20,000 nucleotides of DNA from Lophium mytilinum (lineage: Eukaryota). The DNA lies in NCBI GenBank assembly GCA_010093605.1, contig MU004190.1:1488109-1508108 (forward strand), in the 5' to 3' direction. Positions 1-20,000 of the stretch are shown piece by piece. Numbering within the stretch: the stretch's first letter is position 1; every line of letters starts with the position of its first letter. The notes beneath the pieces are model-generated. The model ran no database searches and was not told the DNA's origin. It was given only the letters and a program-made list of their open reading frames with translations. Position numbers and translations under genes: made by a program.

Positions 1-2107
1 CGCTGCTCCCTCTTCGCCACTGCCAACGATAAGGGAGACCAATGTGGTCTTCCCCGAGCCATTGAGTCCTGCAAGCCCTACTCTCTCACCAGGGTGAATA
101 GTCAGATCAATGTCTACTAACACTGGGGCCGCTGGAACCTTTTTCCGTCCTGGGTATGAGAACGACACCTTCTCGAGCGACACTACAGCCCCAGGAAATC
201 GCAGATCGGGCGGCGTCGCGACCAAGGAAATCTTGACTGCAGGATCGAAGTCCGGCACTTCGATTTCCCCACGCGCGGAAGTGTGGTAGCCACCGCGGTC
301 GCGATTGAGCTTGAAGCGTGTGCCTTTCGCGCTGACTTCCATTCCGGTTCGTTCATCCAGCTTCTTTTGCCGCGATGCCGCCTGCTTCATTCTCTTATCG
401 TCTCCCGTCTTCTTTGCCGCTTTCACATTCTCGGTGATACTCTGTTGCGTGCTTTTCTTCTGGCGATCAATAGCATCTTTCATTTTTGTCAAGTATCTTG
501 CCTTCTTGTGACGCTCTTTCTCATAATAAGAGAGATGTCCTTTGAAGCGCTCTAACGTGAGATTTCGAAGAACGAGCAGCTCTTCCGCAGCCGCGTCGGC
601 AAAATCTCGATCGTGAGTGACGACAACAACTGTCGTATGCTCCAGTGTCCGGACGTAGTCTTGAAGCCAGATAATGGAGGGCAAGTCCAAGAAGTTGGTA
701 GGTTCATCGAGAAGTAGAACGTCGGCGTATTGGCACAATGCGCAAGCCAAATCACAGCGGGTTTTCCATCCGCCGGAAAGTTGAGAAAATGGGTTGCTTA
801 TCCTCTCCGAAGAGAATCCCAAGCCTAGCAGTACCGCCTTGGCTTTTGTTTCTGCTTCCGAAGCGTCCATCTGCTCAAGTTAGTGAACTGACTATGCAAG
901 CAGATGCAGACACCGACTTACGAGCTCGAGGGAGGAGTGGACCCCGGCAAGCATGTCCGCAGCTGCTTGGGTTTCCTCGCTCATCTTTGCTGAATCTATT
1001 TCGGTATCTTGCTCGTTCACCCTGTCTGGGTCAGTACTTGATGATCCCCCAGAACCCTTCCACAGAGGCTTACAGTATCTGCGAGTGCGCCAGCTTGTCT
1101 TCCAAATCAAGAAGGATCTTTTTGGCCTTTGCACCCCGAGCGCCACTTCGTCGAGCGGAAACCTGCCGAGCCTCATCCACGTTTTCTAAAAGACGCTCAT
1201 GGCTGATCTGCCGATACGCTCGCACAGAGGCCATTGAGTCGCTTGTATGCTCCACCGCGGCAGAGAGTACTAAGACTGATATCAGCTCAAGTTTCCATAC
1301 TAGCCAAGGAAGCGGACTTACTTCGAGCCTCGCGAAGAAGCCGCTCTCGCGTTCGATTACTACGAATAACATGTTCTAGCACGGTCTCGCTTTGAAGCTT
1401 CAGATTCTCCAATTCATCGTCAAGAGTCAAACGAGTCTGACCGAGAAGGAGAACGCGAATGCTCCATGGAATGCCAGGGACTTGGCCTTCCGCAATGGCT
1501 TTCAGCAACGCTTTTGGTTTCGTCAGTGACCTGCAATGTCTCCATCAAAAGCGAGATAGACCAACTTGACTTCCCAGTGCCATTACGACCCACTAGAACA
1601 TAGTGCTTTCCCTCCTGCAGATGCAGCTCGGCATGTGACAGAAGTTCTCGCTGGGAGACGCTGATGCTGAGGTCCTTTACCAGGATCTACCCGATTGAGA
1701 TATAGTCAGCATGGAGTTTCAAGCTCATGGGCCACAGAGCCACGCTGGGCATAGAAAAGGTGGCACACTCATCAAGATCTGTCTTTTGCGGTCGTGTTTA
1801 CGCCTATCTGCCACTGCTTGGAGTGCTTTAACAAGTTTCCAGGTAGCCCAAAGCTAAGAGGTTCTACCTCTTTTACATTTTCAAAAAATGTATTGAAGCA
1901 CCCCAAACAGCGGCAGGCAAGTGTATAGGAGGCAGAATGCAATTTGAGTGTGCCCACTTTTTCATGCCCCGCGTGAGAGCTTACCTCTTTCGATGTCGGC
2001 GTATCGACAGCGTCATTGTAAAAGCGACTTTGCTGAGCCGTGACTGTTAAAGCCTGCGAGGCTGCCCCAGAATCTGCGGATGCCGGCTCTTTTCCTTTCC
2101 TGACCAT
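1..2107 (-). CDS. ABC-F family soluble twin ABC ATPase (GCN20/ARB1-related paralogue), 3'-truncated by the window edge
   Basis: Exons 2107-1985, 1686-1566, 1510-1322, 1269-1074, 1021-922 and 870-<1 splice in frame via GT..AG introns of 298, 55, 52, 52 and 51 nt with CTGAC/CTAAC/CTGAT branch sites (533 codons in window). Motifs: Walker A1 GRNGTGKST, signature LSGGW, Walker B LLLDEPTNFLD, H-loop VVTHDRDF, a charged helical linker, and Walker A2 GLNGSGKTT. No transmembrane segments. Confidence 0.93.
1741..1975. mobile_element. 235-bp non-autonomous fold-back DNA transposon (MITE) in ABC-F intron 1; CAC...GTG termini, 5-bp TSD
   Basis: Imperfect terminal inverted repeats at 1741-1771 (CACGCTGGGCATAGAAAAGGTGGCACACTCA) and 1945-1975 (reverse complement CACGCGGGGCATGAAAAAGTGGGCACACTCA). 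An inner inverted pair at 1799-1833/1891-1925 is 26/35 identical. AGAGC is directly repeated at 1736-1740 and 1976-1980. Removing the element plus one TSD copy leaves a normal 58-nt intron. Confidence 0.8.
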
Positions 2108-2179
2108 TACGAAACGAGAATTCGACTAGGTTTGTTTACATCGGCACGATGTGTTTTCTTTATCTTAGGACGTGAGAAG

Positions 2180-2580
2180 GAAAGATATATACGAAAGCTG
2201 CTAAAGGGCCGACAGCGTTCGGCATGCCGACTTGGCATGCAGATGGACACGCGGGGCAGAACGTGGAACACAAGCTGGTGAGTCAACTCCAGATTCACAG
2301 ACTACGCCTCAAATGCAGCGTTCCGAGTTGCATGCGTGGCATTGGATACGAGTCGTGACGCAATCTCTAGAAAAGGGTATGTGACTCAGGCTCCGGTCAC
2401 TCGTCACGAAGCGAAGTTTGCGGATGACTCCCAGATTGCACAGCACGCAAATATACTAGTAGGAATATGAGCCTGTTCATTTAGTTCTGTTCTGAGTCAT
2501 TTCTCTATTTGATCTTCAATTTGAGTTGTAGGCTTCAGATCTGACTTTGACACGACCACTGAGTAAAAGTCACGTGAGAA
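2180..2580 (-). promoter_or_regulatory. ABC-F upstream region with clustered Gcn4/CpcA (AP-1-type) TGASTCA sites
   Basis: TGAGTCA 2279-2285, TGACTCA 2382-2388, TGAGTCA 2493-2499; near matches TGACTC 2425-2430 and TGAGTAA 2560-2566; E-box GTCACGTG 2569-2576; TATA-like TATATAT on the minus strand at 2191-2185, ~80 nt above the ATG. Confidence 0.55.
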
Positions 2581-2618: not shown

Positions 2619-4580
2619 CTACCGCATACGTTGTGTAAGACTTGATAATTCTGAAAAGAATTTCGAGATTGCAGTACTGTATTGCTCTCGCCCCTCAATG
2701 GCTGATCCGACATGTTCAGATATTGCCAACATCTTCTCTTCTTCGAGCCTCCGGCCAACAAGCTGCAGGGAGACGTGTGCGCCATCGTAGATTTCAGGGT
2801 CGTCTAGACACAGTCAGCATCCTAGTCACTACTTCCTAAGCCCAACTCACAGCTCTCATAGCACGCTCTGTCTATTCCATTCCCGGGAACAAAGCTTGAA
2901 TCAATCTTATCGACGTGCTTATTGACCGTAGTGACTGGCACAACCACTGCAGTATAGTCCAGAAGATTGACAAAGGTAGTGTATCCGTAATAGTGATACT
3001 TTCCGGGGCGGGCGGCCGGAAAAGGAGCCACAGGGGATATCACAGCATCGATGGGTCTTCCTGTACCTGTAAGCTCTTCGGTGCTGTTCCAATATTCCAT
3101 GTATTCTTTGCGTAGCTCTCGGATCGTTACGTTCACGGCGGCAATGTCTGATGCTTTGACTTGTTCAACGGGCTTGTCGCCGTATACCGCGATCTGCGGT
3201 ATGGGAGGCTCTCCGGAAAGCCCCAAGGCGCCATGGACATCTTCACCACCGTCAAATACCCAGGTTTTACCCTATCGAAGTCAGTGCTCTATCTGTTTGT
3301 GTAGTGCCAGTAACCTACTCCGACGTCGACAATGCGTTGGTGTGAAGGGGGTTTCCACTCGATGATCTACCGCCCATAAAGTTAGCAGTGCAGTTCCGAA
3401 CGAACTTTCTAGGACCTTACCTCATGTCCTAAGTCTACCAAAGACTTCTTGACTATTTCCAGCGCCCTAAGAACAGGAGGACTAGGAGCGACCACTCCGT
3501 CATGTTTAAGTAGTCCGAATGCCAGTTTCCCAACCTTCGAAGCATCTCCAATGCCGCCAGTCAATTCGAGTATCTTGCGTTCTTGCTCATACCGCCATGG
3601 AATCTCATGGACCAAAGGATCATGGAGCCACGGTTCCTGGCTCAACAGACCCTTCATCACCAGTCGCAGAGATGATACACTCGTCGCTAGTGGCCCGACC
3701 ACCGATAGAATAGAGTTCTGGCCATCCATCGAATTTGCCATGCCTTCGTAGGGCATTCGTCCAGTCGAGGGTCTGATGCCATATAGACCACAGAAGGCAG
3801 CCGGAATCCGGATCGAGCCACCAATATCGGTCCCAAAGCCGACCGGCGAGCCCTTGAGCCCGATTAGTGCCCCTTCTCCACCCGAGCTACCTCCACAGGC
3901 GAGGTACCTGTTCTTCGGGTTTGTGGTATAACCAATGATGTTATTGGCCGTCTCCCCGGCCATCAGGGTGTGTGGAACACTGGTTTTGCAGAACAGGATG
4001 GCGCCCAAGTTTCGTAGTTCCCGTACCATCTCGCTCTCGAAGATTTTCTCTTTGCCAGTCCCTGTCTTGCCTTGGAAGGTGCCTATCCATCCAACATATC
4101 CCATCGTCGTCTCGACACCTTTGACGTGGAACTGATCTTTCAAGCTGACTGGTAAGCCATGAAGCGGCCCGATCGGCTTCTTGTGCTCGGCGAAGTAGTC
4201 ATCAAGTTTCTTTGCATCTTGAATCGCGGCATCGAAGAAGATCTCATGGAGGCAGTTTACCTGACATAGTTAGCGGACGAATCGGATACCAGGACTCGGG
4301 ATTAGAGTACGAGCTGATGAGCAATCGCGGCCCGGTGGCAGAAGGCTTTCGTGACCTCGACTGCACTCCAAAGCCCGCGAACTGTCCGCTTGACTATGTC
4401 GTCTGCGGTTGTCTCCGTGATCTCTATTTCTCGGTCTGTGAGGAACTGCTGGATATAGTTCCCAGTGACATCGCGTTGTTCTTCCACGCTGGGAATCTTC
4501 TCGAGGAGGTGTTCTTTTGGGATCAGAGCGCTGACAGAGTCCCGTTTTTCTTGGGCGCGTTGCTTCCAGTCTGTGGCCAT
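2619..4580 (-). CDS. Amidase-signature family amidase (acetamidase/general amidase-like), 587 aa
   Basis: Exons 4580-4311, 4260-3421, 3366-3319, 3271-2851 and 2803-2619 total 1764 nt, in frame, ending in TAG. Ser-cisSer-Lys triad motifs are intact: GPLHGLPVSLKD (Lys), GGSSGGEGAL and GTDIGGSIRIPA; C-terminal LQLVGRRLEEEK. Confidence 0.95.
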
Positions 4581-4740
4581 GGCTGTAGGCTTACAGTCAA
4601 GGATATCCGCAAGAGTGGTGTATATGAAATGGGACGCGAGCTGACGAATGGGTTCAGGTCGAGCTTATTCGGACTCGACAGGTCAACAGAAATGGTTTGG
4701 ATGGCCTGCCCTAGACGTAACGTTCCAATCGCCTTGCCTG

Positions 4741-4747
4741 TGACTCA
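4741..4747. promoter_or_regulatory. Single perfect TGACTCA (Gcn4/CpcA-type) site ~160 nt upstream of the amidase ATG
   Basis: Exact 7-mer match; a single site, so it could be chance. Confidence 0.3.
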
Positions 4748-5872
4748 CTCGTACAGAGCTCCTACCTTTGAGTACTGAGACTCTGCGGGGCATTGAAGCT
4801 GTGTTTGACCGTGGGTCCGTGCTATCGACGGGCGATAAAAGCTACTTTCCTAAAAGGTCGTAGTGTCTGTCGGCAGTTTTGCCCCGATGAGTCCCTATGT
4901 GTTTCCCTCTCTCGTAAAGAAATTCCATCGTAGGGAAGCGAGACATTATCTTTCCCTCAACGTCCATCTCATCATAGCATAGATACACCATGTAAGCAAG
5001 ATTCTGCTGTTTCGATGGGTTTTGTTACCGTTTCCACCGCGGTATTGACCGCTGGGTCGGCGACGGCTTAATCTACAACGCGCAGCCCGTGAAGTCATGC
5101 TCGACAGCTCACTGGTCAACTTGGAAACCTTCAAGCCTGTTGCTTTTATCAAGGTACTCTCCTATCACTATCGACCGATTTTGCGTGTCGTTTAAAGTTC
5201 TTGCGAAAAGCTCTGGTTTCACATCATCGATCTCAATGACGTAGTTACAAGTCGCACTGGGTTACTTCCCCATCATGTCTCAAAGCGTTAGTAGTTGAAC
5301 GAAGAGGTCTCTGTAGATGTTAAGATAACCTTAAGCTGTTTACTTGCTTGAGTATGGCAAGATGCCCAGTAGTCCCGCCTAGGAGGCTTGCAGGGCACAG
5401 TAACTCCAAGGCCATCAAGGCGTGAAGACAACGCAATTGGGTACTACAGTCGGTAATATCTTACTTAGGGTATCGCGTATAGTTGTTACGCTGCGATCTT
5501 TTGATTCTCCCAATAGAACCCCGCAGCGCACCTGCTTGTCTTTCTCCGTCAGATATATGCTCCCCAACCACAATTCTTTCATAACTATAGCCCCGCACTA
5601 TCGCCGTATGCTTACCTGTTCCCTCTGAATCATTCATTGGTGGGGGCAGTGACCTACTCTGAGCTCGGCTCCTCGTAGGATGTGGGGTAACGTATCGATA
5701 TAAACTTACCGAATCAGCAATATCTGACACGAAACCCAGAACACTGCACATCCGAAAGCTCCACTAGTACTACTCTATAATTAAAACAAGTGCTGCTGTC
5801 TACGGCTCTTTGATAAAACATACTTGGTTCTATCTAGTCGTTAAAGACGCAACTGTTTAGCAGCAAAACGGA

Positions 5873-8163
5873 ATGTCTTCCACCGTAACTCTTACTGCAT
5901 CAACACCGACCATTGCTCCATTCAGCGAAATCAAAAACGCTCAGACACACAATACCAAGAGTCAATTCAATGCGACCGGTGAAAGCAAGAAGCCATCCTG
6001 GTCTTTAGACAAGAATGGCAGATTTGCTGATTGCCCGGGTGGTCTGTTTGATTTCACTCCCTGATTTGAACGTAGCTGATCCGTGTCTAGACATCAGTGA
6101 ATTCCTAATACCCGACCACGCAGGCGCCAGCACTACAACAAACGCACTCCAGTGGAGAGCAAAGAAAACTTACGCTGCTATCGCTGCGTTGGGCCTCACA
6201 TTGTTCTATGGGTCAGAAAACCCAAAGCTGCGAACCGCTGGAATAAGCTTGCTCTTTCCTGGCGCAGGATACCTTGCCGTTGGCGGTGTCCTTGGGTACA
6301 GCGGCTTTCTTATTACGGCGGCTCTTTTTCCACTTTGCATGGTGGCTTGGTTTGGTGCTGGTGGATTGGCATTTCCGCTTGCTGACTGGATTTTCTCCGG
6401 GCTCATTGCGACTTATTTTGCAGGGCCCCAGCTTGTCGAGTCCTCCGCCGTTACGACGCTGGGTCTCGTTGGAGTCGTTTATACGTATTTGGCCACACGA
6501 TCCAGCTGTGAAGAGGCCGCTGAAGTTGAAAAGAAAGCTCGACGAAATGACCTTCTCCATAAAGCAAACAAGAAATGGGAAGTCGAGACCACCATGGCTG
6601 GTCCCCCCGGATCTCGAGAGTTGACACTGGACCAGCTTCGTTTCCTGCAATGGATCCTGGAGCTTGCGATGCAAGACCATGACGACTATTCCAACATGAC
6701 TAATATCGACCAGTTCCAGCCTGCTGCGTTTCGCTACCAGCTCTACGAATTTGTAAATTGCCTGGGGACTTACCAATGCCACTATGCTCCAAATTTTCAT
6801 GGATACCTATCGGCCGCTCAGCGGAATGCGATCGAGAAGTCTATCACTCCCAAGGTACTTGGGTTCTGGCGATGGGAGAGTCTTTGGGGAAAGTTTACCA
6901 CCGTAAGTCAGCTGCTGCTCCTCTCTGCACGAGACGTTCTAAGTAGTATGAGAATTACGACCCGGTCATCAAAGATAACATTATGGTAACCGGGTTTCTG
7001 GCTCTCGCAATTGGCCTTTACCAGCGAAATACTGGAGACACACGCTATTCAAAGCAGAAGGCGCTAGACATGAAAATCACGGACCAGAAGTCCTACAAGC
7101 ATGACTATCACTCACTGTACAAAGCTCTTATCAACAATTGGTCTGAAAGCAAGTTTGTCTTGTATCCGTGCGAGGTGAGTCTAAAAACATCCATCATCCA
7201 TGCCGCCACAGTGTTCTAATGGAGATACAGCCAAATTGGATATATAGCATGTGTAACTTGGAATCTTACGCCGGGGCTACAGTGTATGAAGACATATACC
7301 CAACTGAAAGAAGCCAGCAGTTTCTCCAAGACTTTTACCGGCATTTCGAAGAAGACTTCTTCACCCAAGGTGGATCTTGCATACCAATCAAGAGCGCGAT
7401 AACAGGATTCACGATTCCTGGTCTCTGTGGAAGCATGGCAGACACTTCCAATAGCCTGTTTTGCTCCCCTTTCATGCCGACGCTCGCGAAACGGATCTGG
7501 CTCATCACGAAAGAGGAAAATGTACGTTTCGATCAGGACGGAAAGATTGATATCATCAACCTCAAAGGCGCCGATGTCATAGACGGCGGAAACTATGAGA
7601 AGAACTCCCGTGGCCCTCTGGGTGTGTTTGCGATTACAGCCGCCGAGTGGGGCGACAAGAAGGTATCGGAGGCCTGCTTGAAACGAATTGACGAGGAGTT
7701 TGCGCCTGTCGAAGTCACCCCGAAGACTGGATCTAAGAGGAACAAAGGAATGGGGACTACCACATCTGGCATGCTGACGAGAGCTCGTTTCATGGATGGG
7801 GGAGATTGGGCCAGCCTCGTCAGACACGGACCTGCAAAGACCGCTCTTGCCGGTCCTGTGCTTGATTCAGCACCGTACCCGCAAGTATTGGTTGCGAAGG
7901 CGTTCTCGCACACTTCTAAGGTAGCTTACTCGTCGCTCAACCTAAGAGCATCAAATTGACAGCCATCCCAGGATCTTGAGCTTGTGCTCTACAACGGCAA
8001 AGAAGAGGGCGTTTTCCAGCTCGGATTAACGAAGCTGCAGCCAGGCGTTACATACACCGGGCTGCCTGGACAGACCATTACCGCTGACGGTGCTGGAAAC
8101 GCTGAGTTGTCTGTCGCTCTCAATGGGCGAACACGCATCCACTTGCAGCCCATTGCTCAGTGA
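5873..8163 (+). CDS. Linalool dehydratase/isomerase (LDI)-family protein with N-terminal membrane anchor, ~693 aa
   Basis: Exons 5873-6038, 6091-6902, 6953(or 6947)-7174, 7231-7920 and 7972-8163 join in frame to TGA. Motifs FRYQL, YDPVIKDNIMVTGF..GLY...TGD.RY and YPCEPNWIYSMCN correspond to bacterial LinD motifs as I recall them (DPIEKENIMYKGH..GLY...TG..RY; CEPDNYFVQCN). Several hydrophobic segments are encoded at ~6170-6495. Confidence 0.85.
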
Positions 8164-9279
8164 TTGGGATCAGGGGCCAATCAATGGGGATAGAAATGAG
8201 GGGAATGGTTCTTGTTGATAGTTTGCCGCGCCGAGGGTAGTTTTTGATGGTAGTTGCTGCGTGTACAATTGCTGATGGCACTGAGATTTGCCCCTCTTTT
8301 CGCGCATCTCAATACGAGTAGTGTGCACCCCTGGATAAACTCTCAGTGAGGCTTGCATGACTCGAGTAGAATAGGTAGTTCACCCCACAAATATCCCAGT
8401 TGCGCCACAATTTCCCCACACTCCGGAATATACTGAGGACCTGATGGAGAAATAGTAACATAGCCCCCGTACCCAGCTAAGTAACTCGAGTATCCCATGT
8501 TCGGGTGCTTACACAGCTCTAATGCTTCGCACATACCTTTTGCACCCCTATAGTAAAGCAGTGTAATATTTCTAATTACGTAATATAAGAATTTTAAAAA
8601 TAATAGATATTAATTCTATATAGAAATCTAGCTAGGCTATATATATTAGAGAGGCCTATATAGGCCTTAATTATACTAGATCTATATAGAAAAGTATTTC
8701 TATAGTAGATCTATATATTATATATATAATATCTAAATATTAACTATATATTAAGAATTCTATATTTTCTTCTTCTAGATTTAATTTACTATTAAATTAT
8801 ATTTATAATAGTATATTATGCTTACTACTTTACGCTATATATTATTAGTATATTAGGCTATTAGCTTCTTTAGAAGCTTTAAAGCTTCTAGAGGTATATA
8901 ATACTATAAAAAGTATATTAGTAGGTAGTAATATTATAGTAATATTACCTAAGAGGGGTTTAGAATTCTTTAGAGGTCTACTACTATATTAGTAGGGGAT
9001 AATAAAGGTATTAGAATATTTAATAGCTTAATAGTAAGAAAGAATTAGAAGAGATTATAAAGTATTTATAATAGAGGGAATTATAAAGTAATATAAATAT
9101 TAGCATGCTAGCGTATATTAGGTTCTAATATATAATTAAAGCTATAATAGCTAATAATAGGCTTATTAGAAATCTTATAAAGTTTCTTATAATCTAGTAA
9201 GAAGCTTATAATATTATATAGATTTAAGAAGCTATTAGTATATTATAGAGTAGTAAGTAGTAATTTAAAAGTAATAAAT

Positions 9280-10800
9280 TTAAGAATCTAGAGTATATAT
9301 AAGGCCTTCTTAATACTCTTATACTTTTTCTTCTATACTTAACTTTCTTCTTTAAGGTTTAAGCTTCTCTTATCTTTAAAGATTTATTAAAGACTTTTAT
9401 AGCTTCTCTTTTTATTACTATTATCTTTCTTTATTAATTCTTTTATTAGAACTCTCTCTCTCTTAGCTTCTAGGCTATTTCTTCTTACTCTAAGTTAGTA
9501 TTATAATATTACTTAATACCTAGCTAGGTTCTATAGCCTCTAGCTTACTCTATTTAGAAAGAGGTAGAGATAGAGGTAATAATTCTTTAAACTCTAGCTA
9601 TAGTTATAAGGTTCTATACTCTTATAAATTCTTAGGTATTTTAGCTTATAAAGCCTTATAGGCCTATAGTAAGTTTTTAATAATAGTTTAGCTTTTTCTC
9701 TTAATAAAGCTAATAAGATCTAGTTACTATTATACTTATATTAATTATTAACCTTCTAATAGTCTAGAGGTTCTATAATCTATACTATATATAGCTAATA
9801 GCCTTTAATAACCCTATTCTACTTTCTTAAGCCTTCTAATACTATACTATAGCTTCTAATTATCTAAACTATACTAAATACCCCCTAAAGTTTAAAGATA
9901 GTAGTAGAGCTTAAAGAAATATACTACTTTAAGAGTTTCTTAGTAATATTAGAGATAATAAACTAATTTTAAATAAAAACTATAGCTATACTTTACGCTT
10001 TATAGGGCTTCTTAAATAGTATTTAGGCTTAAGAGTAGATTATAGTAAGAATTTTAGAGCTTTTTCTACCTTTAGGGCCTATAACTACTACTTAAGAATA
10101 TTCTTAGAAGGCTATTAGTTTAGTAAATATATTTAGGCTTATAATCTAGATAGTTCTTCTCTCTACTAAGGATTCTATATAGAATATTATTAGCAGAGTA
10201 GTAAGAAAACTTATTTATTCTAAGGTAAGTTTAGCTTTACTTTTAGAGTATTTTAGAACTTAGCTAATATCTATTATAGAAGAGTAGACTCTAATAGCTT
10301 ATTAGAAGACTACTAGGGCTTATATTTAATAAGGTTACTATAATATTACTAAGTTTATATCTTCTCTTTATAACTAAGAATCTTTTAAGAACCTAACTAA
10401 AAATATAGTATACTTAGCCTTAGCTATATAGCTACTAATAGAATTAATTTAAAGAAAGACTACTATACTACTATATAATCTAGATATTTCTTATACTTCT
10501 ATTTCTTTAATAGCTTAATATTACCTATAGGGCTCTAGTAGTACCTCTACTTAGGCTTTTAGTTTAAGATCTAGCTTTTAGTAATTATCTATAGCTATAT
10601 TAGGTTTAGAAAATATAGCTACTTTAGATTCTAGTACTTAAGGTCTAAAGTAATACTCTCTAACCTTTTCTACTTAGCCTTTAACTTCTCTAACTTCTTT
10701 AACCTCTTATTATTCTTCTTTAGGTTCTCTATAGTGCTTTTAAGAGTCTACTTCTAATATACTATTAAGCCGCCGCTTATCCTAGTTATCTATTAGTAAT
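9280..10800 (-). pseudogene. RIP-destroyed, intron-containing reading frame of unknown family (~490 codons)
   Basis: One frame, 10799-9549, reads as plausible protein if TAA/TAG are restored to Gln/Trp. It is followed by a phase-0 59-nt intron relic at 9548-9490 (GTAAGC...TACTAAC-TTAG) and a K/E/Q/R-rich last exon 9489-~9280. True start and stop cannot be determined. Confidence 0.55.
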
Positions 10801-11253
10801 AATAATAACTCTACTAGAGAGACCCCTCTAAACTCTACTTAGTATTAGATAGGCTCTCTAAATACTATTCTCTAGAAGAATAGAGCTAGTAAGTATAGCT
10901 AAAATATATTAACTTAGAGTGCGCCTCTAAAATAGCCTTAGAAGAATAATAATAGCTATTCTAGTAGTAATAGTAACTATAGAAGTTCTAGTAAAAGAAG
11001 TTCTAGTAGTAGAATAGCTACCTAGAAGAACTAAGAGTATATTAGCTTAGCTAGTATTAGTAGAAAAGCGTTAATTTTCCCTCCCCTTCTAGATATAAGA
11101 AGGGTTAAGTATAATAGAAGTATAAGCTTAGCTTAGTTAATCTCTAATATAGATTCTTAAATTTATTATCTTTTTAATTCTCTAAAGATAAAATATAGCT
11201 AAATAAGTAATAATAAAGAATTAAATACTTAAATCTAAATTAATAAAGAAAAT

Positions 11254-11985
11254 CTAGGTAATAAATATATAGAGTTCTTTTAATACTCTATTAGCTTAAA
11301 ATAGAAGCGCTATTTAAGCTCTCTTATACTTTCTTCTGCGCAACTCTATATTAAGAGCTTAGGTGGGTTATATTATAGATATATTAAAATTACTATCTAA
11401 ATCTAACTTATAATTACTACTAGTATTCTTATTATCTTTAATATCTATTATACTAGTATTACTACTAGAGGAGCTCTCTAATTAAATATTAGAGTTAGTA
11501 TTCTTATCTAAGGACTTATTATTTATGCGTATTTTAGTATTCTTAGCTCTTAAGTTAATCTCTTTATTCTATAGCTTTATAGTATTATTAGTTTAAATAA
11601 TAGTATTACCCCTTAGCCGCATAATAATAGTATCTTTATTATACTTATTATTATCTTAGTATATAGTATTAGGTAATTAGGTAGTAGTATTTATACTCTT
11701 AAGTATTCTATTACTATCTTAAGCTATTTCTAATAGTTCCCTATTATTAGTATCTATAGCTAGTACTAATATATTATTAGGTTATTCTATAGGTGCTGCG
11801 TAATTACTAGTTCTCTATAGAATATTAAGCTTATCTTAACTTATCTCTAGCTTATATATATAAACTTTCTAATAGGTATTTATAGTAGTCTTATTTATAT
11901 CTTTATATTATATAACTATAAAGCTAGTAACCTATACTAGTATAATAGTTAATTAACTCTTTTTAGGTCCCTTTTTCTTAGTAGC
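11254..11985 (-). pseudogene. RIP-destroyed reading frame with acidic low-complexity region, interrupted by the LTR insertion
   Basis: Continuous frame rich in AAT/GAT/AGT codons (probably former Asp/Ser), ending in a basic ELRRRK motif; it runs up to the LTR boundary at ~11990. Family not recognised. Confidence 0.4.
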
Positions 11986-11989
11986 CCGT

Positions 11990-12189
11990 TATTAGGGCTT
12001 AAGGTTGGAACGTTGGAATTATTAGATTAAATAGTATTAATATTAATAAAAGATAAATACAAGAGAGGAAGAGGTTTCTAGGACGGACGTTATAATAACC
12101 TAAAGGGCGGAGTAATATTTACCTATTCTATAGAGCCTCTATTACGTAACCTCTAGTTATGTATTATGCGCAATTATATAGCTATAATA
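11990..12189 (-). mobile_element. 3' LTR (~200 bp) of a Ty3/Gypsy element
   Basis: On the minus strand it begins TATTATAGC and ends CCCTAATA, i.e. RIP-converted TGT(C/T)A...T(G/A)ACA. It is immediately preceded by the polypurine tract AGAGGGGGGAGACG (12203-12190). Confidence 0.8.
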
Positions 12190-12406
12190 CGTCTCCCCCC
12201 TCTAAAGAAGCCCCCTAATTAAAGCTTTTATAAGAGAGAGTCCTTTCTATACTAGAGTATTTATAACCGCTTAAATATCTATTAAATAAAGTGCCTAATT
12301 ATATTTTAGTTGTAAGTAAATAAAGGAAATAAATTAATTTATAGAGAATTACTTATCCTTTCTATTTTTATGCAGCCTACTATAGCCTTACTATTTTAGT
12401 ATAGCA

Positions 12407-12518
12407 GTATTACTATGCGCCGTCTTACTATGCGCAGTATTACTATATATAGTATTGCTATACGCAGTGTTGCTATATATAGTATTACTATACGTAGTAT
12501 TACTATGCGCAGTATTAC
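12407..12518. repeat. 15-bp tandem array (~7.5 copies) in the Gypsy 3' region
   Basis: Units start at 12407, 12422, 12437, 12452, 12467, 12482, 12497 and 12512; GTATTACTATGCGCA with almost exclusively transition variants. Confidence 0.9.
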
Positions 12519-12769
12519 CGTCTTATTATTTATTTAAACTAGGGCCGGCTATAATAGGGCTATAAGAAGCTATATAGCCTTTATAGCTACTAGCCTACTA
12601 CTAGGTACTTATAATAATCTGCGCTGTTTCGCATTAATTATTATACATGTCTACGGTTAGGCCTTCTTAATAAATTAATTTAACCGCCGGTCTAGTAATT
12701 AAATTATATAGCTTCTATAATATTAGTTATATAGAGGTCTATAGCGGCAAGAATAGTAGCTAAGGTTAG

Positions 12770-13375
12770 CTCCTAGTCTAATAGTAGTTAGAATAATAGG
12801 TAAGAGTCTAGTTTCTTAGGGTACTAGTAGTAGAAATCTATAATAAGATATAGATAACTATTAGCGTAATTATAGTTATTCTATTACGGCTTATTATTCT
12901 ATCTAATAAACTTAATCTTATATTATAATATACCCCTTTTTCTAGTAGTAGAATTAAGATATCTTCTATCTAGGCGGCTATCTATAACTTCTTTAGCATT
13001 GCCTTTCTAGTACGTAGGTATTATCTTAATAGGGGGAGGCTTAGGATTGCATTATTCTTTTATAGAAACGGCGTTAGCTAGATAGAGAAGCTATAGATAG
13101 AATACTAGATAGATATTCTCTATACCTTTTAGTAGGTTAAGCTTATACGCGCTTCTATTTTTATAGCTCTCTAGAATCTTAAAGGGGCCTAGCTTCTTAA
13201 AGTTAAGCTTCTTATTTAGGCGCGTGGTTTTAATAAAGCGTCTATCTAATATAACTTAATTACCTAGGTAATATATATAAGCTAGTTACTATCCTGCGTT
13301 AGTATATTTCTTTTACTTAGCCTAGGCCTACTTAATTTCCGTATAGAGAAACGCGCGTAATTTATCTATTCTAGT
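12770..13375 (-). mobile_element. Gypsy chromovirus integrase C-terminus (GPF module) plus chromodomain, RIP-inactivated
   Basis: Literal translation includes KKLGPFKILE, AYKL, PPPI, EVIDSRL, YKIKF and YPKK. De-RIPed, it gives IHPVFHPWLL and ADFHHRYPEKPG, typical of fungal chromoviruses. Confidence 0.9.
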
Positions 13376-14045
13376 NNNNNNNNNNNNNNNNNNNNNNNNN
13401 NNNNNNNNNNNNNNNNNNNNNNNNNNNNNNNNNNNNNNNNNNNNNNNNNNNNNNNNNNNNNNNNNNNNNNNNNNNNNNNNNNNNNNNNNNNNNNNNNNNN
13501 NNNNNNNNNNNNNNNNNNNNNNNNNNNNNNNNNNNNNNNNNNNNNNNNNNNNNNNNNNNNNNNNNNNNNNNNNNNNNNNNNNNNNNNNNNNNNNNNNNNN
13601 NNNNNNNNNNNNNNNNNNNNNNNNNNNNNNNNNNNNNNNNNNNNNNNNNNNNNNNNNNNNNNNNNNNNNNNNNNNNNNNNNNNNNNNNNNNNNNNNNNNN
13701 NNNNNNNNNNNNNNNNNNNNNNNNNNNNNNNNNNNNNNNNNNNNNNNNNNNNNNNNNNNNNNNNNNNNNNNNNNNNNNNNNNNNNNNNNNNNNNNNNNNN
13801 NNNNNNNNNNNNNNNNNNNNNNNNNNNNNNNNNNNNNNNNNNNNNNNNNNNNNNNNNNNNNNNNNNNNNNNNNNNNNNNNNNNNNNNNNNNNNNNNNNNN
13901 NNNNNNNNNNNNNNNNNNNNNNNNNNNNNNNNNNNNNNNNNNNNNNNNNNNNNNNNNNNNNNNNNNNNNNNNNNNNNNNNNNNNNNNNNNNNNNNNNNNN
14001 NNNNNNNNNNNNNNNNNNNNNNNNNNNNNNNNNNNNNNNNNNNNN
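13376..14045. other. Assembly gap (670 N)
   Basis: Run of N. Confidence 1.
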
Positions 14046-16245
14046 TAGTTATTAGTTTTATAGTTTTATAAAAAACTATATAGCTATAAAACTTAATAGT
14101 TTCTTAAGTAATTAAGCACTTATTAGTTTTAGTAAATAGTTATTTCTTTCTAAGAGCTTTAAATAATAATTAGAGGTAGTTAAAATACTCTTCTAATATT
14201 TCTAAAAATACTATAATATTATCTATATAGATAAGCATAAATTAATATAGATATAGTTATAAGGTATTATTTATAATAGCTTAAAAGGTAGCAGGAGCAT
14301 TATAGAGGCTAAAAGGTATAACTAGAAATTTAAATTTCCCTTTAATTATATTAAAAGTAGTCTTATAGATATCTAATTAATAAATATATAGCTAGTAATA
14401 TCTAGAGGTTAAATTAATCTTAGTAAAGAACCTAGCCTTTCTAAATAACTATAGATAGTTATTAATATATAGTAGAGGGTAGATATTCTTCTAGGTTACT
14501 AGATTAAGTACTCTATAGTTAATATATATTTACTACTTACTATTTAGCTTTAGAATAAAAAGAACTAGAGATCTCTAGGCACTAATAGACTCTTAGATAA
14601 GGCCCTATTCTAGTAGCTTATAGATCTATTAGGTCTATTCCTCTATTTAATAATATAAGAGGTAGTATATAGTATTATTTACTAGCTTTATATTTTTAGT
14701 ATTAATTAGATAGTTATATCTACGCTTAGGCGGTAGAATATTAGAGAGAATATTATAGAAATAAGGTTTATACTCTTTAAGAAGCTTTTAAAACTTCTCT
14801 TATATAGAAGTAGTAATATAATTAATTAGGGGTAATAAATTCTTATCTTCTAATAGCGGATTAGTGCCGGGTTATAGTATCTAATCTAGCGTTAGTTTAT
14901 TAGAAGCTTTTATAATATAAAGATAAGTGGAATTAAGCTTATCTACTAAAAGCTTCTTATACTTCTAATAGGATATTATATTAATAAAACTCTAGTATTC
15001 TAGTTTAGAAAGACTAAGGTCTATAATAGGGCTTAATATATTAAGCTAATAAGCTACTAGTTTAATCTTTAGGTTGCGGCTAACCTGCGTTTACAAGGTA
15101 ATAGAATTAGTAAAGAAGTTAATAATAGCTTAGTATTACTATAGCTAGGTTATACTAAGAATATATTAATACTCTTTAAGGTCTAGAATATATATAGTTA
15201 GAGTACCTAATAGTATATAGATCTTAAATAGAATCTCTAAGGCTTTTATACTAATTATAGTTACACCTAAGAGAAGTTTAACTACCTTAGAGGCTATTAT
15301 TTTAATATTTCTTAGCTAATATTAAGTATACTTTAATAATATATAGATAAAATTAGCGCTATAGTTAATTAAGAAGGTAGTTTTTTTCTAATAGTTAGAT
15401 AGTTCTAAAGTTCCCTTATATTCTAAAAGATATTTACCTAGAGAGTTAAGATAGTAGATTCTTTCTTCTATTAATTTAATAATAATTTAGTTAGAATATT
15501 ATTAAAGGGTAGCTAATTCTTTTCTATTATAAGTTTATAAAAAGTAGAAGTCTTATCTTTTAGGTTAGTTAGTTGCTCTAAGGCTACTAACCCTCCTAGT
15601 TTTCTAATAGCTTCTTAGCTAGCTAAGTATAGTTATATTTAATATAGCCCTTCTTACTATAATTATAGTACTTACGCGTATTAGTATTTTATTAAGTATT
15701 ACCTTTACTATATCTACTATAGCCTTAACCGCGTCCTTAAGATCTAGTAGTATTTCTACCTTTAAAGGTATTAAGTTTAGCGTTATCTTTAATATCTAGA
15801 TATTTATATTTATTAGAATTAATATTAGTTCCTTAGAAGTAATTATTATCTAATTCTTTATTAGCCCTAGAGATAGTATTAAGGCGGCCCTAATAGTCTC
15901 TTATTCTCTTATACTAGAAGATTTAATACTTATTAGTAGTAGTAACCTATACTATCTATTTATTAAAATTAAAAGGGGCCTACGCTTAGGCGTTAATATA
16001 AAACTTAAGGCTAGGTTTTAAACCTACGCGGGCATATTAATATACTTTAAGATTAGATAGAGCTATATTAAGAGAGTATATATAAGTAGCTCTAATAAGC
16101 TTATTAAAGAACTAATAAGTACTAGTTATCTATACTATTTTATTAAAGTAGTATTAGCATTACTCTAGTATATCTATACTCTTATAGCGGCGGCTAAAGG
16201 TAGTAAAGAACTAATTTAATATAGTAAACTTAGTATTATCTTAAT
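14046..16245 (-). mobile_element. Ty3/Gypsy gag-pol segment (gag with CCHC knuckle, aspartic protease, RT), RIP-inactivated
   Basis: De-RIPed motifs: CYNCGKKGHIKRDC (~15680-15630), LIDCGA protease (~15375-15355), and RT SPVLFVPK..GKWRMCIDYRALN, YPLPRID, FTKIDLTSGY, MPFGLCNAPATFQ and Y(I/M)DDI (~14620-14200). Confidence 0.92.
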
Positions 16246-16408
16246 AGGAAAAAACATAATATAATTAAATTTGCAGCACCTTAGAAATACAACCTAAGGA
16301 GGGCCTCTAGGGGCTACTTAAGGCCCTATAAACGTTTGCACGCAGTATTAGAGCTCTATAAGCCGTGCTAGCGGCGTTGTAGTAGAATTACGCATCGCAA
16401 CCCCTATT

Positions 16409-18127
16409 ATACAGCATTATTAATAATAATAATAATAATAATACTACTAATAATACTAATAATAACCCTAAAACTAAACCTACTAACTAAAGACTAAGTA
16501 GAATATCTACGCTAACGTCTAAGCGCTTATTAAAGAAGCCTATAGTATATAGGACTCCCTATAGAATAAGCCTATATCCTTTAACCCTAAGATAAATAAC
16601 GCCCTTAAGTACCTCTAGAACTTCGCCGGGCGCGTACTAGCTAGCCTCTCGGGCACTGCAGAGGACCTATAATAAACGCCATAGAGAAAGATAATAAAGA
16701 TAATAGAGAAAATATAGAAGAGTATATAGGTACTATCTATATAAGAAACAACCTATATAGTAGTAATAGCAGTAGAAAGAAATAGTAAGACTGCAGGAAA
16801 TAGGGAGTATATAATGTAGACTACCTATAAAATTACTATATATATTAAGAATAAGAAGAAACGCGCCGTAATAAATAAGGACTTAAATACAACTATTACC
16901 TATAAGCTCTAAGTAGTAGAAGAGCCTAATATAATAAAGATCTATAGCGTTAAAAAGCTCTAGAGCGGAGACGTAAAGGCCTATATACCGGACGCAACCG
17001 CTAAGAAAGCCCTATTAAAGAAGAAGGAATAGATAAAGGTTCTAGGTAAAATAGTATAAATCTAACTACCTAAGGTCCTCCTAGAGGTGCACAGAGTACC
17101 TAAAGAGATAGACCTAAAGAACCTAACACTACAAAGCAGTATTATATAAGATAATAAGGTACTATACCTAGGCCTAGCTATATATAAGATTACGTAGAAG
17201 CATCTAAATTAGATCTAGGCTATTAGAAATAACTCTAAACGGCGCGCCTTATTAGCTATAGTTACTATAGGCATAGAGATAATAGTAAATAAGATTATAG
17301 ATAGCGGGCTAGTATAGAATAGATATATACTAGAGGCTGTAAAGTATAAGGTAGACTTTATAGCTACCTAATACTTCTAATGCTAGGGCTATAGGTATGT
17401 TGCTAGACACTATAAGAAGGAGGCGGTATACGCGGCGTGCGTAGAAGCTTATAATATAAGATAATATATAGAGAAGAGTATTAGAAAGTGCGCTAACTAT
17501 AAGAGAAGCTACCTATTATATAGTGCGGCGTGCACTATAAGAAAGAATGCTTAACTAAAAGCTAATATAAAGAGATAGGTAGCACTAACCTACTATAGGG
17601 CTAATAATAGCCCTAATAATAATACTAATAACACGCCGGGTATAGTAATATTCTAATCTATAATAGAATTACAAGCTCTTAACGCGGTAAGTAGAAAGAG
17701 AAAGGCCACTAAGAATAGTAATATACTAGACAGCAGCACCCTAAGAAGAATAGAACGCCCTCCTATATCTACTATATTCGCCGCGTATAAGAACCTAAAA
17801 TAACTAAAGATAAATAGAGTGCTATAGTCTACCTATACTATATAGACTACCTAATTAATATATACTTTCTATTTAACGCAGCAGCCTAACTATAATAACC
17901 TGCAGCCTTACTATAATAGCCTGTAGCCTTTCTATAGAACTCTATAGCCTACCTATAAAATACTATACTACTCTTAGATAATAACCTATAGTAATAACGC
18001 CGGACTATTGCAATTTAATATAACTTAGGTGCCGTCTACCTAGAAAGAAGAGGTAGCGGGCTATTAGCTCTATACTAAGGCTAGCCGGGCTATAATAAAT
18101 AACCCCGAAGACTCTATAGATACCTAA
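16409..18127 (+). pseudogene. LINE ORF1 (gag-like, three zinc knuckles), ~572 codons
   Basis: ATA (former ATG) at 16409. The same frame holds de-RIPed QCFQCQGYGHVARHC..CAACAEAH....C..KCANCKGSH.....AC at ~17370-17535 and ends in TAA at 18125-18127. Confidence 0.8.
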
Positions 18128-20000
18128 TGTTAGGGCAACCTAATATACTTACTATTATATAGTATAATATTAATAAGAGCTAAGAGACCTAAAGGGAGTT
18201 CCTTAAGAAGGTAGAGGCAGCCTAGCTCTAGCTATTAGTACTAGCTATATAAGAACTATAGAAGAATATCTAGAAATATACCTTACTATATATAAAATTA
18301 TACTACCTACTATATAGAGGAAGCCTAAAAGCTAGAATATGCATGTATATTAATAAGTGCCTAAATCTAGGCTAATAGACTATAGAGCACTACTTACTAG
18401 ACCTTATTACTCTCTCCCTCTAGGCCGGGGGAGAGGATATTTAAATTTATAATATCTATAACCTAAAGCTATATAGAATTATAGCTATACTACCCCCTAT
18501 ACTATATAAGGAGGTAGAGTATATACTTATAGGCGATATAAACCTATACTACCTATTCTAGAGAGGAATATAGGTAATTAGTACGGAAGAGTAAGCTAAG
18601 AAGCTTATTTATATTATAATAGAAGTAGGCCTAACTCTAGCTATAGAGGAGGGCATAGAAATATAGATAAGAGAAACGCAGTAGACTATAATTAACCTTA
18701 TATTTATATCTAAATAGCTAATAGAATATATAATATCCTATATAGTTTAAGAGAAGTAGAACTATTACTTAGACTACTACCCTATATATACGGAATTTAA
18801 TATTACACTACTACTAGTAACTAAATAGCCCCTACGCCGGCTATAGAAGAATATTATATAGAAGGATGTATAGAAGCACCTTATAGCCTAGCTAGTTAAG
18901 CTAGAAAACTAGAATAACCCCCTAGATAATAAAGAAGAAGAAGACCTAGATAACTTTATACGCATTCTCTACTAACTTATTAAAATTACTATTAATGCTA
19001 TAGTACTAATAGCATAGCCCTTATAGTATATATTACTATTCTAGACTAAGAAGTACTTAGAGGAGGTGTATAAGACTAGGCGGGCGTATAGAATATAGCA
19101 CTTATTATACTCTATAGAGGACTAGATATTATACTAGGTCTAGTATAACTGTAAGAAAAGAGCTATATAGAAAGAGAGCACTAAGGTATAGCACTATATA
19201 GTAGAGAAGGTAATAAATAACTCTAAAGGGGTATAGAAACTAGCTAAATAGGGCTGTATAGTTAGAAAGGAATTAAGGCCCCCTCCTTAATTTTCTTTTC
19301 TCTTCTAGCTAGGTAACCCCACCCTGCATGCAGATAATAAGATAAAAGTATATATACTTACTAAATAGTTCTTTCTACTACTAGTAGAAGCTAACCTATC
19401 TAATCTAGAAGAGTTCTAATACCCGGAACTATATACTACCTCTATAGAAGTTACTATAGAAGATATACTCTTAATACTAATAGAAATTACGCTAGATAAG
19501 GCCTCTAGAATTACAGGAATTATAAATAGATTTCTAAAGAAGTGCGAGATGCAACTAGTACTAGTGCTTGCCTACTTCTTTATAAAGTACCTATATAGAG
19601 GACACTACCTCCGCCTATTTAAAGAATTAATTATAGTAGTTCTATATAAACTCTAGAAAGCGTTCTATATAATAGTAAAAGCCTATAGGCCTATTATGCT
19701 ACTAGAAATAATAGGTAAGCTATTTAAATATATTATAGCTAAGAGGCTCTCTAAGATAGTAGAGGAAAAGAGCATACTACCGCCTAGCTAAATAGGGGCA
19801 CGGCCGGAATGCTCTATATAGATAGCACTTAAACTTCTTATAGAATAAATCTATACTATATAGAAAGGAAACCTATAGCTTATAGTATTACTTCTTAGCC
19901 TAGATATATTAGAAGCGTTTAATTAAGTCTTATATAAATAAATAATATATAACCTATAGGTCTAGAGTATACTAGAGTAGATAATAAGGTTTACTAGGTT
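18127..20000 (+). pseudogene. LINE ORF2 (APE endonuclease plus reverse transcriptase), partial
   Basis: ATG at 18127. A single frame contains de-RIPed QYN, LAIQEPW, GDxNLHHPFW, IDL, SDHYPI, DKAPG, AYRPIxLL..MGKLFE, QMGARP and LLSLDISxAFD. Confidence 0.92.

Follow-up and report, generated by a model that had tools for sequence, protein, structure and literature searches.

The insertion in intron 1 and its host gene

The window analysed here is the 20,000-nucleotide stretch C10:1488109-1508108 of the 43.4-Mb, 49-contig Lophium mytilinum assembly. It opens within a minus-strand gene for an ABC-F-type ATPase, which was recognized in a profile search by ABC_tran (E 3e-19) and by ABC_tran_Xtn (E 3e-5, just under its cut-off). 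The first intron of this gene carries a small element that has terminal inverted repeats (TIRs) plus a target-site duplication (TSD), and the features of the locus are as follows:

1..2463, minus strand: host gene, ABC-F-type ATPase, extending beyond the window start
1687..1984, minus strand: first intron of the ATPase gene, length 298 nt, based on the spliced-contig joint 1686-1985
1736..1740, no strand: left TSD copy, AGAGC, 5 bp, from the reading of the flank and the TSD length of the family
1741..1975, no strand: whole MITE, 235 bp, of the ~232-bp size class
1741..1771, plus strand: left TIR, 31 bp, beginning CACGCTGGGCAT
1799..1838, plus strand: left arm of the inner inverted repeat, containing an inverted copy of the TIR core
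1886..1925, minus strand: right arm of the inner inverted repeat
1945..1975, minus strand: right TIR, 31 bp, beginning CACGCGGGGCAT on the minus strand
1976..1980, no strand: right TSD copy (AGAGC), equal to intron positions +5 to +9 on the minus strand

The original prediction had pointed to the length of intron 1, 298 nt versus 51-55 nt elsewhere in the gene, and this was confirmed by a spliced, RNA-like contig from run X3, in which 1687-1984 (298 nt, GT..AG, minus strand) is skipped whole, with 1686 joined to 1985, and the other four introns are skipped at 51, 52, 52 and 55 nt. The RNA nature of this contig is the program's guess; it shows no differences in the listed exon pieces, and is uninformative on whether its own strain carries the insertion. 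The proposed 235-bp element with TIRs of ~31 bp and its exact AGAGC flanks were likewise found in place, the 31-nt arms being 84% complementary, and the single-stranded MITE folds with a z value of -6.97, no shuffle being equally stable (0/200). Taking out the element and one TSD copy leaves, by arithmetic, an intron of 298-235-5 = 58 nt, the length that had been predicted. The right TSD copy falls at intron positions +5 to +9 and so leaves the 5' splice site GTAAG intact; the MITE is inserted just behind it and is removed along with the intron, and as the intron is still spliced the insertion seems harmless.

Run X4 contributed a small share of material, which lies outside the MITE. Over window positions 1710-1931, run X3 also contains many RNA-like contigs with MITE copies, suggesting that copies occur in transcripts; contig depth is no measure of expression. 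An 11-nt exact match to the start of the right TIR at 2248-2258, in the first exon region, is probably due to chance. Further along, positions 8500-20000 are AT-rich and RIPped and include an assembly gap around 13400-14100, and 16242-20000 is 90% identical to C2:1507608-1511368.

A dispersed MITE family with a fixed 5-bp target-site duplication

The insertion was predicted to represent a family of cut-and-paste MITEs whose ends are CAC and whose TSD measures 5 bp, of which other genomic copies should then be found, with differing TSDs. At least 40 places hold short-form homologues that are 75-88% identical to the element (40 of the 133 candidates were scored), and a ~400-bp long form with a different left half adds at least 40 copies (40 of 101 candidates scored). 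A TIR pattern matched the genome 139 times, as compared to 0 for the reversed control, and when the TIRs of a first set of loci were paired, 73 distinct elements emerged, along with 45 ends left as orphans. The 5-bp TSD is exact in 42 of the 73 paired elements and carries at most one mismatch in 58; among the same elements exact duplications of 2 bp occur in 4, and of 3, 4 or 6-10 bp in none. After shuffled pairing of the flanks, exact 5-bp TSDs were counted at a mean of 0.8 and a maximum of 6 in 10,000 shuffles. The predicted family is fully supported. A later, more decayed batch of 20 loci yielded 11 pairs, some of them probably spurious, with 2 exact and 3 one-mismatch TSDs.

The 42 exact TSDs comprise 41 different words. 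Their GC content is 62%, versus 51% in the flanks, and the symmetrised consensus CC(A/T)GG describes a GC-rich palindromic target, flanked by A at -2 (25/42) and T at +2 (26/42). Terminal positions 1-3 of the 42 TSD-intact copies read 5'-CAC, with C at position 3 in 42/42 at both ends. Neither the TA target duplication expected of Tc1/ITm elements nor the 2-3-bp TSD of EnSpm, Plavaka and ESTA is the pattern of the 73 paired elements. Several size classes resemble one another in TIRs and inner repeats only, and inner TIR-core repeats in both orientations were found in 14 of 31 short copies (0.04 expected). The family thus consists of short, non-coding, non-autonomous TIR elements with a TSD of fixed length and many dispersed copies.

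Within the short class the median identity between pairs is 78% (98% for the closest pair), and within the long class 72%, which points to a largely old family that was still somewhat active later. In the short, 232-bp class the C-to-T rates are free of a CpA bias (CpA 0.088 versus 0.055-0.085); in the long, 400-bp class they are mildly biased towards CpA and CpG (0.18/0.16 versus 0.10). RIP has a length threshold near 400 bp, and the difference between the classes fits such a threshold, in keeping with the earlier suggestion that the element escapes RIP by being short.

Search for an autonomous partner

Longer copies with the same TIR had been envisaged as autonomous partners, and none was found: no coding element carries the MITE's TIR among the TIR ends inspected (100 of 139 and 100 of 107 pattern matches listed). 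Where the DNA inward of such ends was inspected, it consists only of MITEs, truncated MITEs and chance ends, and a RIP-tolerant TIR pattern revealed no heavily RIPped pair. The TIR is also absent from the 14 loci with a DDE_3 profile hit (0/14) and from further motif loci (0/3). Whole-genome searches with the RAG1 (PF12940) and Transposase_21 (PF02992) profiles gave no candidate, a result that carries little weight since the controls were silent, and short-motif scans of viral and prokaryote collections returned no Transib proteins. Scans for the MITE's TIR outside this genome gave 0 and 120 single matches in metagenomes and 7 in a viral collection; as a partner TIR or MITE interior accompanies 0 of these 127, they were rejected as relatives and taken as chance.

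At one locus (C1:195921, L031:301-1250) the left TIR of the MITE is followed by an interior of ~800 bp that looks coding and resembles a decayed ORF. It has a single weak, RIPped match in the genome (C2:1502863), and the interior gave no Pfam hit and no relative among longer proteins or, for frame 1, among 1.84 billion representatives. At another (C8:1155818, L042:301-1261), 961 bp separate a left TIR from a short, right-TIR-like end, with a near-matching TSD (CCAGG/CCAGT); this interior is AT-rich and non-coding, and possibly represents a nested insertion.

A Tc1-like relic with CAC ends and a 5-bp duplication

The genome contains two copies of a RIPped Tc1-like element of ~1.5 kb, at C10:1825288-1826810 (L301:1375-2897) and C5:2098412-2099919 (L302:1375-2882); no further copy was found. 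They are 92% identical, and their shared sequence stops exactly at CAC...GTG, with CCGTG/CCGTG flanking the C10 copy and GCCTC/GCCTC the C5 copy; the stop of the alignment together with both flank pairs fixes the ends of the relic and settles its TSD at 5 bp, a length defined by two insertions only. On C10 the relic lies inside a decayed MITE copy, which serves as an empty site: of the 73 MITE copies tested, all 11 that score at least 70 fit one CCGTG better than two. The relic is younger than the MITE copy hosting it. TA duplications were found at 0/2 relic copies.

A profile built from the two copies has the Sleeping Beauty transposase (PDB 5cr4, E 8e-5) as its sole PDB match. The relic had no hit in Pfam, no relative was scored in databases or found in plasmids, and the atlas gave no usable match for a 62-aa piece; since the sequence is RIP-damaged, blank searches for relatives were to be expected, and the Tc1 placement is based on one structure match and the visible motifs. 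Resident Tc1-type elements offer a comparison. Of the 14 genome hits of the DDE_3 profile, the 4 with clear ends have TA TSDs, as does one more element, and three of these five TA-making elements also start with CAC; two other motif hits are not transposases. The relic's TIR, of about 30 bp like that of the MITE, shows an anchored identity of 10/27 beyond CAC, the highest among five Tc1-type TIRs compared; at p 0.07-0.08, this similarity falls short of significance. The relic's half-sites (0/4) do not show the bias seen in the flanks of the MITE (A at -2, T at +2).

In this genome, the relic alone among coding elements has been shown to bear the end-and-TSD signature of the MITE. ITm elements are described as duplicating TA in general (PMC10045372), and no description of a Tc1/ITm element with a 5-bp TSD was found in literature outside subscription journals and Repbase. 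The two insertions provide evidence that a Tc1-type element is able to make 5-bp GC-rich duplications, a more surprising result than the MITE family.

Resident hAT and Plavaka elements

Two further kinds of resident transposon were considered as partners. Among three hAT hits, the only one with readable ends, a decayed element at L244:~3180-6775 (C21), terminates in (C/T)AGGGCT and is flanked by a TSD of 8 bp, CTCCTCTT. A Plavaka-domain element of ~26.5-26.6 kb (C12:209907-236510, C7:2186486-2213101 and C11:258834-285321; 16 profile hits) has PlavakaB-type (C/T)ATTAGG ends and 2-bp TSDs in the three copies read end to end. Both were rejected, as ends and TSD differ from those of the MITE. On C12, one Plavaka-domain copy is nested in another.

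Origin of the mobilizing enzyme

DDE transposases work in trans on TIRs, and the stagger of strand transfer sets the length of the TSD. We consider, with a probability of roughly 0.5, that the mover was a sister family, since lost or erased by RIP, of the Tc1-like (IS630-Tc1-mariner) lineage, the link between MITE and Tc1 being drawn from the signature shared with the relic. The relic family itself is not the mover, given that its TIR match is not significant, that none of its four half-sites shows the flank bias and that no Tc1-type relic carries the MITE's TIR; a sister family is compatible with these findings. In such a scheme, a transposase supplied in trans would have bound the ~30-bp TIRs, with the inverted TIR-core copy further inside perhaps serving as a second binding site. 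The element would have been cut out and joined to GC-rich, CCNGG-like targets with a 5-nt stagger, whose repair would generate the 5-bp TSD. Long copies would then have been lost to RIP, and short copies, below the reach of RIP, would have outlived their mover.

The original prediction favored a Transib-like or convergent family. The first reading, generalized to a RIP-erased transposase of Transib or another member of the CMCT clade (EnSpm-Mirage-Chapaev-Transib), cutting through nicks and hairpins as RAG and Transib do, appears somewhat unlikely. CAC ends and a 5-bp GC-rich TSD are published marks of Transib (PMC1131882), and all three are displayed by the MITE, which also has TIRs in the ~30-38-bp range of non-autonomous Transib/ProtoRAG elements (PMC1131882; PMC4840297). 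At the level of the ends the likeness is partial: the Transib heptamer is CACAATG, whereas the MITE has CACGC(T/G)G, and the AA at positions 34-35, where Transib ends are conserved, occurs at 23/31 left ends of the short class but at 3/31 right ends, and at 1 and 2 of 32 long-class ends; an RSS-like second block is seen at one end of one size class only. The 12-spacer form has no match at the MITE ends. The TIRs of HzTransib are reported to show little nonamer similarity (PMC4840297), hence a missing nonamer is compatible with Transib, and a 2026 preprint describes variation of TSD and TIR ends even within Transib (10.64898/2026.08.26.747230), which makes the signature weak in both directions. 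CAC termini with a 5-bp TSD, advanced earlier as a Transib hallmark, are not diagnostic in this fungus, because the Tc1-like relic carries both; the alternative of convergence gains accordingly. Elements of the CMCT clade, for which CA..TG ends and TSDs of 2-5 bp are described (PMC12730594), occur in this genome in the form of Plavaka relics. The inner core repeats of the MITE, in both orientations, recall the subterminal repeats that CACTA elements carry, while the RAG1 and Transposase_21 profiles came back empty, with the reservation on silent controls made above.

Within the same reading, a true Transib lineage, Transib proper, in a filamentous ascomycete seems rather improbable. The host of the MITE is an ascomycete in which the profile search, with its silent control, found no Transib transposase. 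A 2005 paper mentions Transib among fungi in soybean rust only (PMC1131882), and a fungus-wide survey reports none found (PMC5751038); a 2022 study lists 20 fungal hits of Transib-like proteins, Erysiphe pulchra included (PMC9435367), but its supplement gives the Erysiphe and Austropuccinia loci as lacking identifiable TIRs. No description of a fungal Transib, or of a 5-bp-TSD MITE of this kind, was found in literature outside subscription journals and Repbase. Should the mover nonetheless be Transib, the TIRs and TSDs of the MITE would count as evidence that RAG-type transposition occurs in an ascomycete; in the sources cited, one survey found none there and reported hits lacked TIRs.

It is unlikely that another DDE enzyme with a 5-bp stagger, hAT5-like, Ginger2-like or of an unnamed fungal lineage, moved the family. 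Ginger elements have TG-type ends, which counts against a Ginger2-like mover. For Ginger2 a TSD of 4-5 bp is reported (PMC10045372). Families of hAT with 5-, 6- and 7-bp TSDs are described (PMC12730594), but the third position of hAT ends is G (PMC1131882), where the MITE has C throughout, and the readable resident hAT departs from it in ends and TSD. The coding-looking interior behind a MITE TIR at C1:195921, which has no known relative, counts in favor of this reading, as does the 199-bp MITE with 5-bp TSDs of Penicillium digitatum (as cited in 10.1101/798991). An origin other than a DNA transposon, either a solo LTR or a chance hairpin, is effectively refuted: ascomycete solo LTRs also carry 5-bp TSDs (10.1101/798991), but the ends here are CAC...GTG on both strands and not TG...CA, the TIRs measure 31 bp, and what several size classes have in common is confined to TIRs and inner repeats.

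Taken with a Tc1-like sister family as mover, these observations give close to even odds that filamentous ascomycetes host an undescribed Tc1-type branch that has no TA target, cuts GC-rich sites with a 5-nt stagger, has CAC ends and converges on the Transib/RAG signature, with the MITE family as its footprint. The family itself is real and well defined, and filing it as Transib is not warranted.

Comparison with known systems

Sleeping Beauty (PDB 5cr4) represents the Tc1 elements of the IS630-Tc1-mariner group and their MITEs; the likeness lies in a relic of this genome with the same end and TSD signature as the MITE, and in TA-making Tc1-type elements that start with CAC. The fungal CMCT elements EnSpm, PlavakaB and ESTA (PMC12730594) and Sly1-1 (PMC4592977) are described with likenesses in their CA..TG ends, fungal hosts and RIP-decayed long copies; unlike the 5 bp of the MITE, the TSDs given are 3 bp for EnSpm, 2-3 bp for PlavakaB and TA for ESTA (PMC12730594). 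PdMLE1 of Penicillium digitatum (10.1101/798991), a 199-bp ascomycete MITE with variable 5-bp TSDs, is similar by description only.

Non-coding transposons are classified chiefly by the length of their TSD and by their terminal bases. If the proposed Tc1-type branch is real, a Tc1-like element with CAC ends and a 5-bp GC-rich TSD would violate the ITm superfamily's TA rule, the equation of CAC plus 5 bp with Transib would be unsafe in fungi, and a natural variant would be at hand for the study of target choice and stagger in Sleeping Beauty-type enzymes.

The genome also has 21 hits of the MULE profile, recorded as coordinates only, and a second MITE family of 230-385 bp, with TA-flanked CAGT...ACTG ends, which was observed at L068, L071, L072, L082, L100 and L300:4360-4530.
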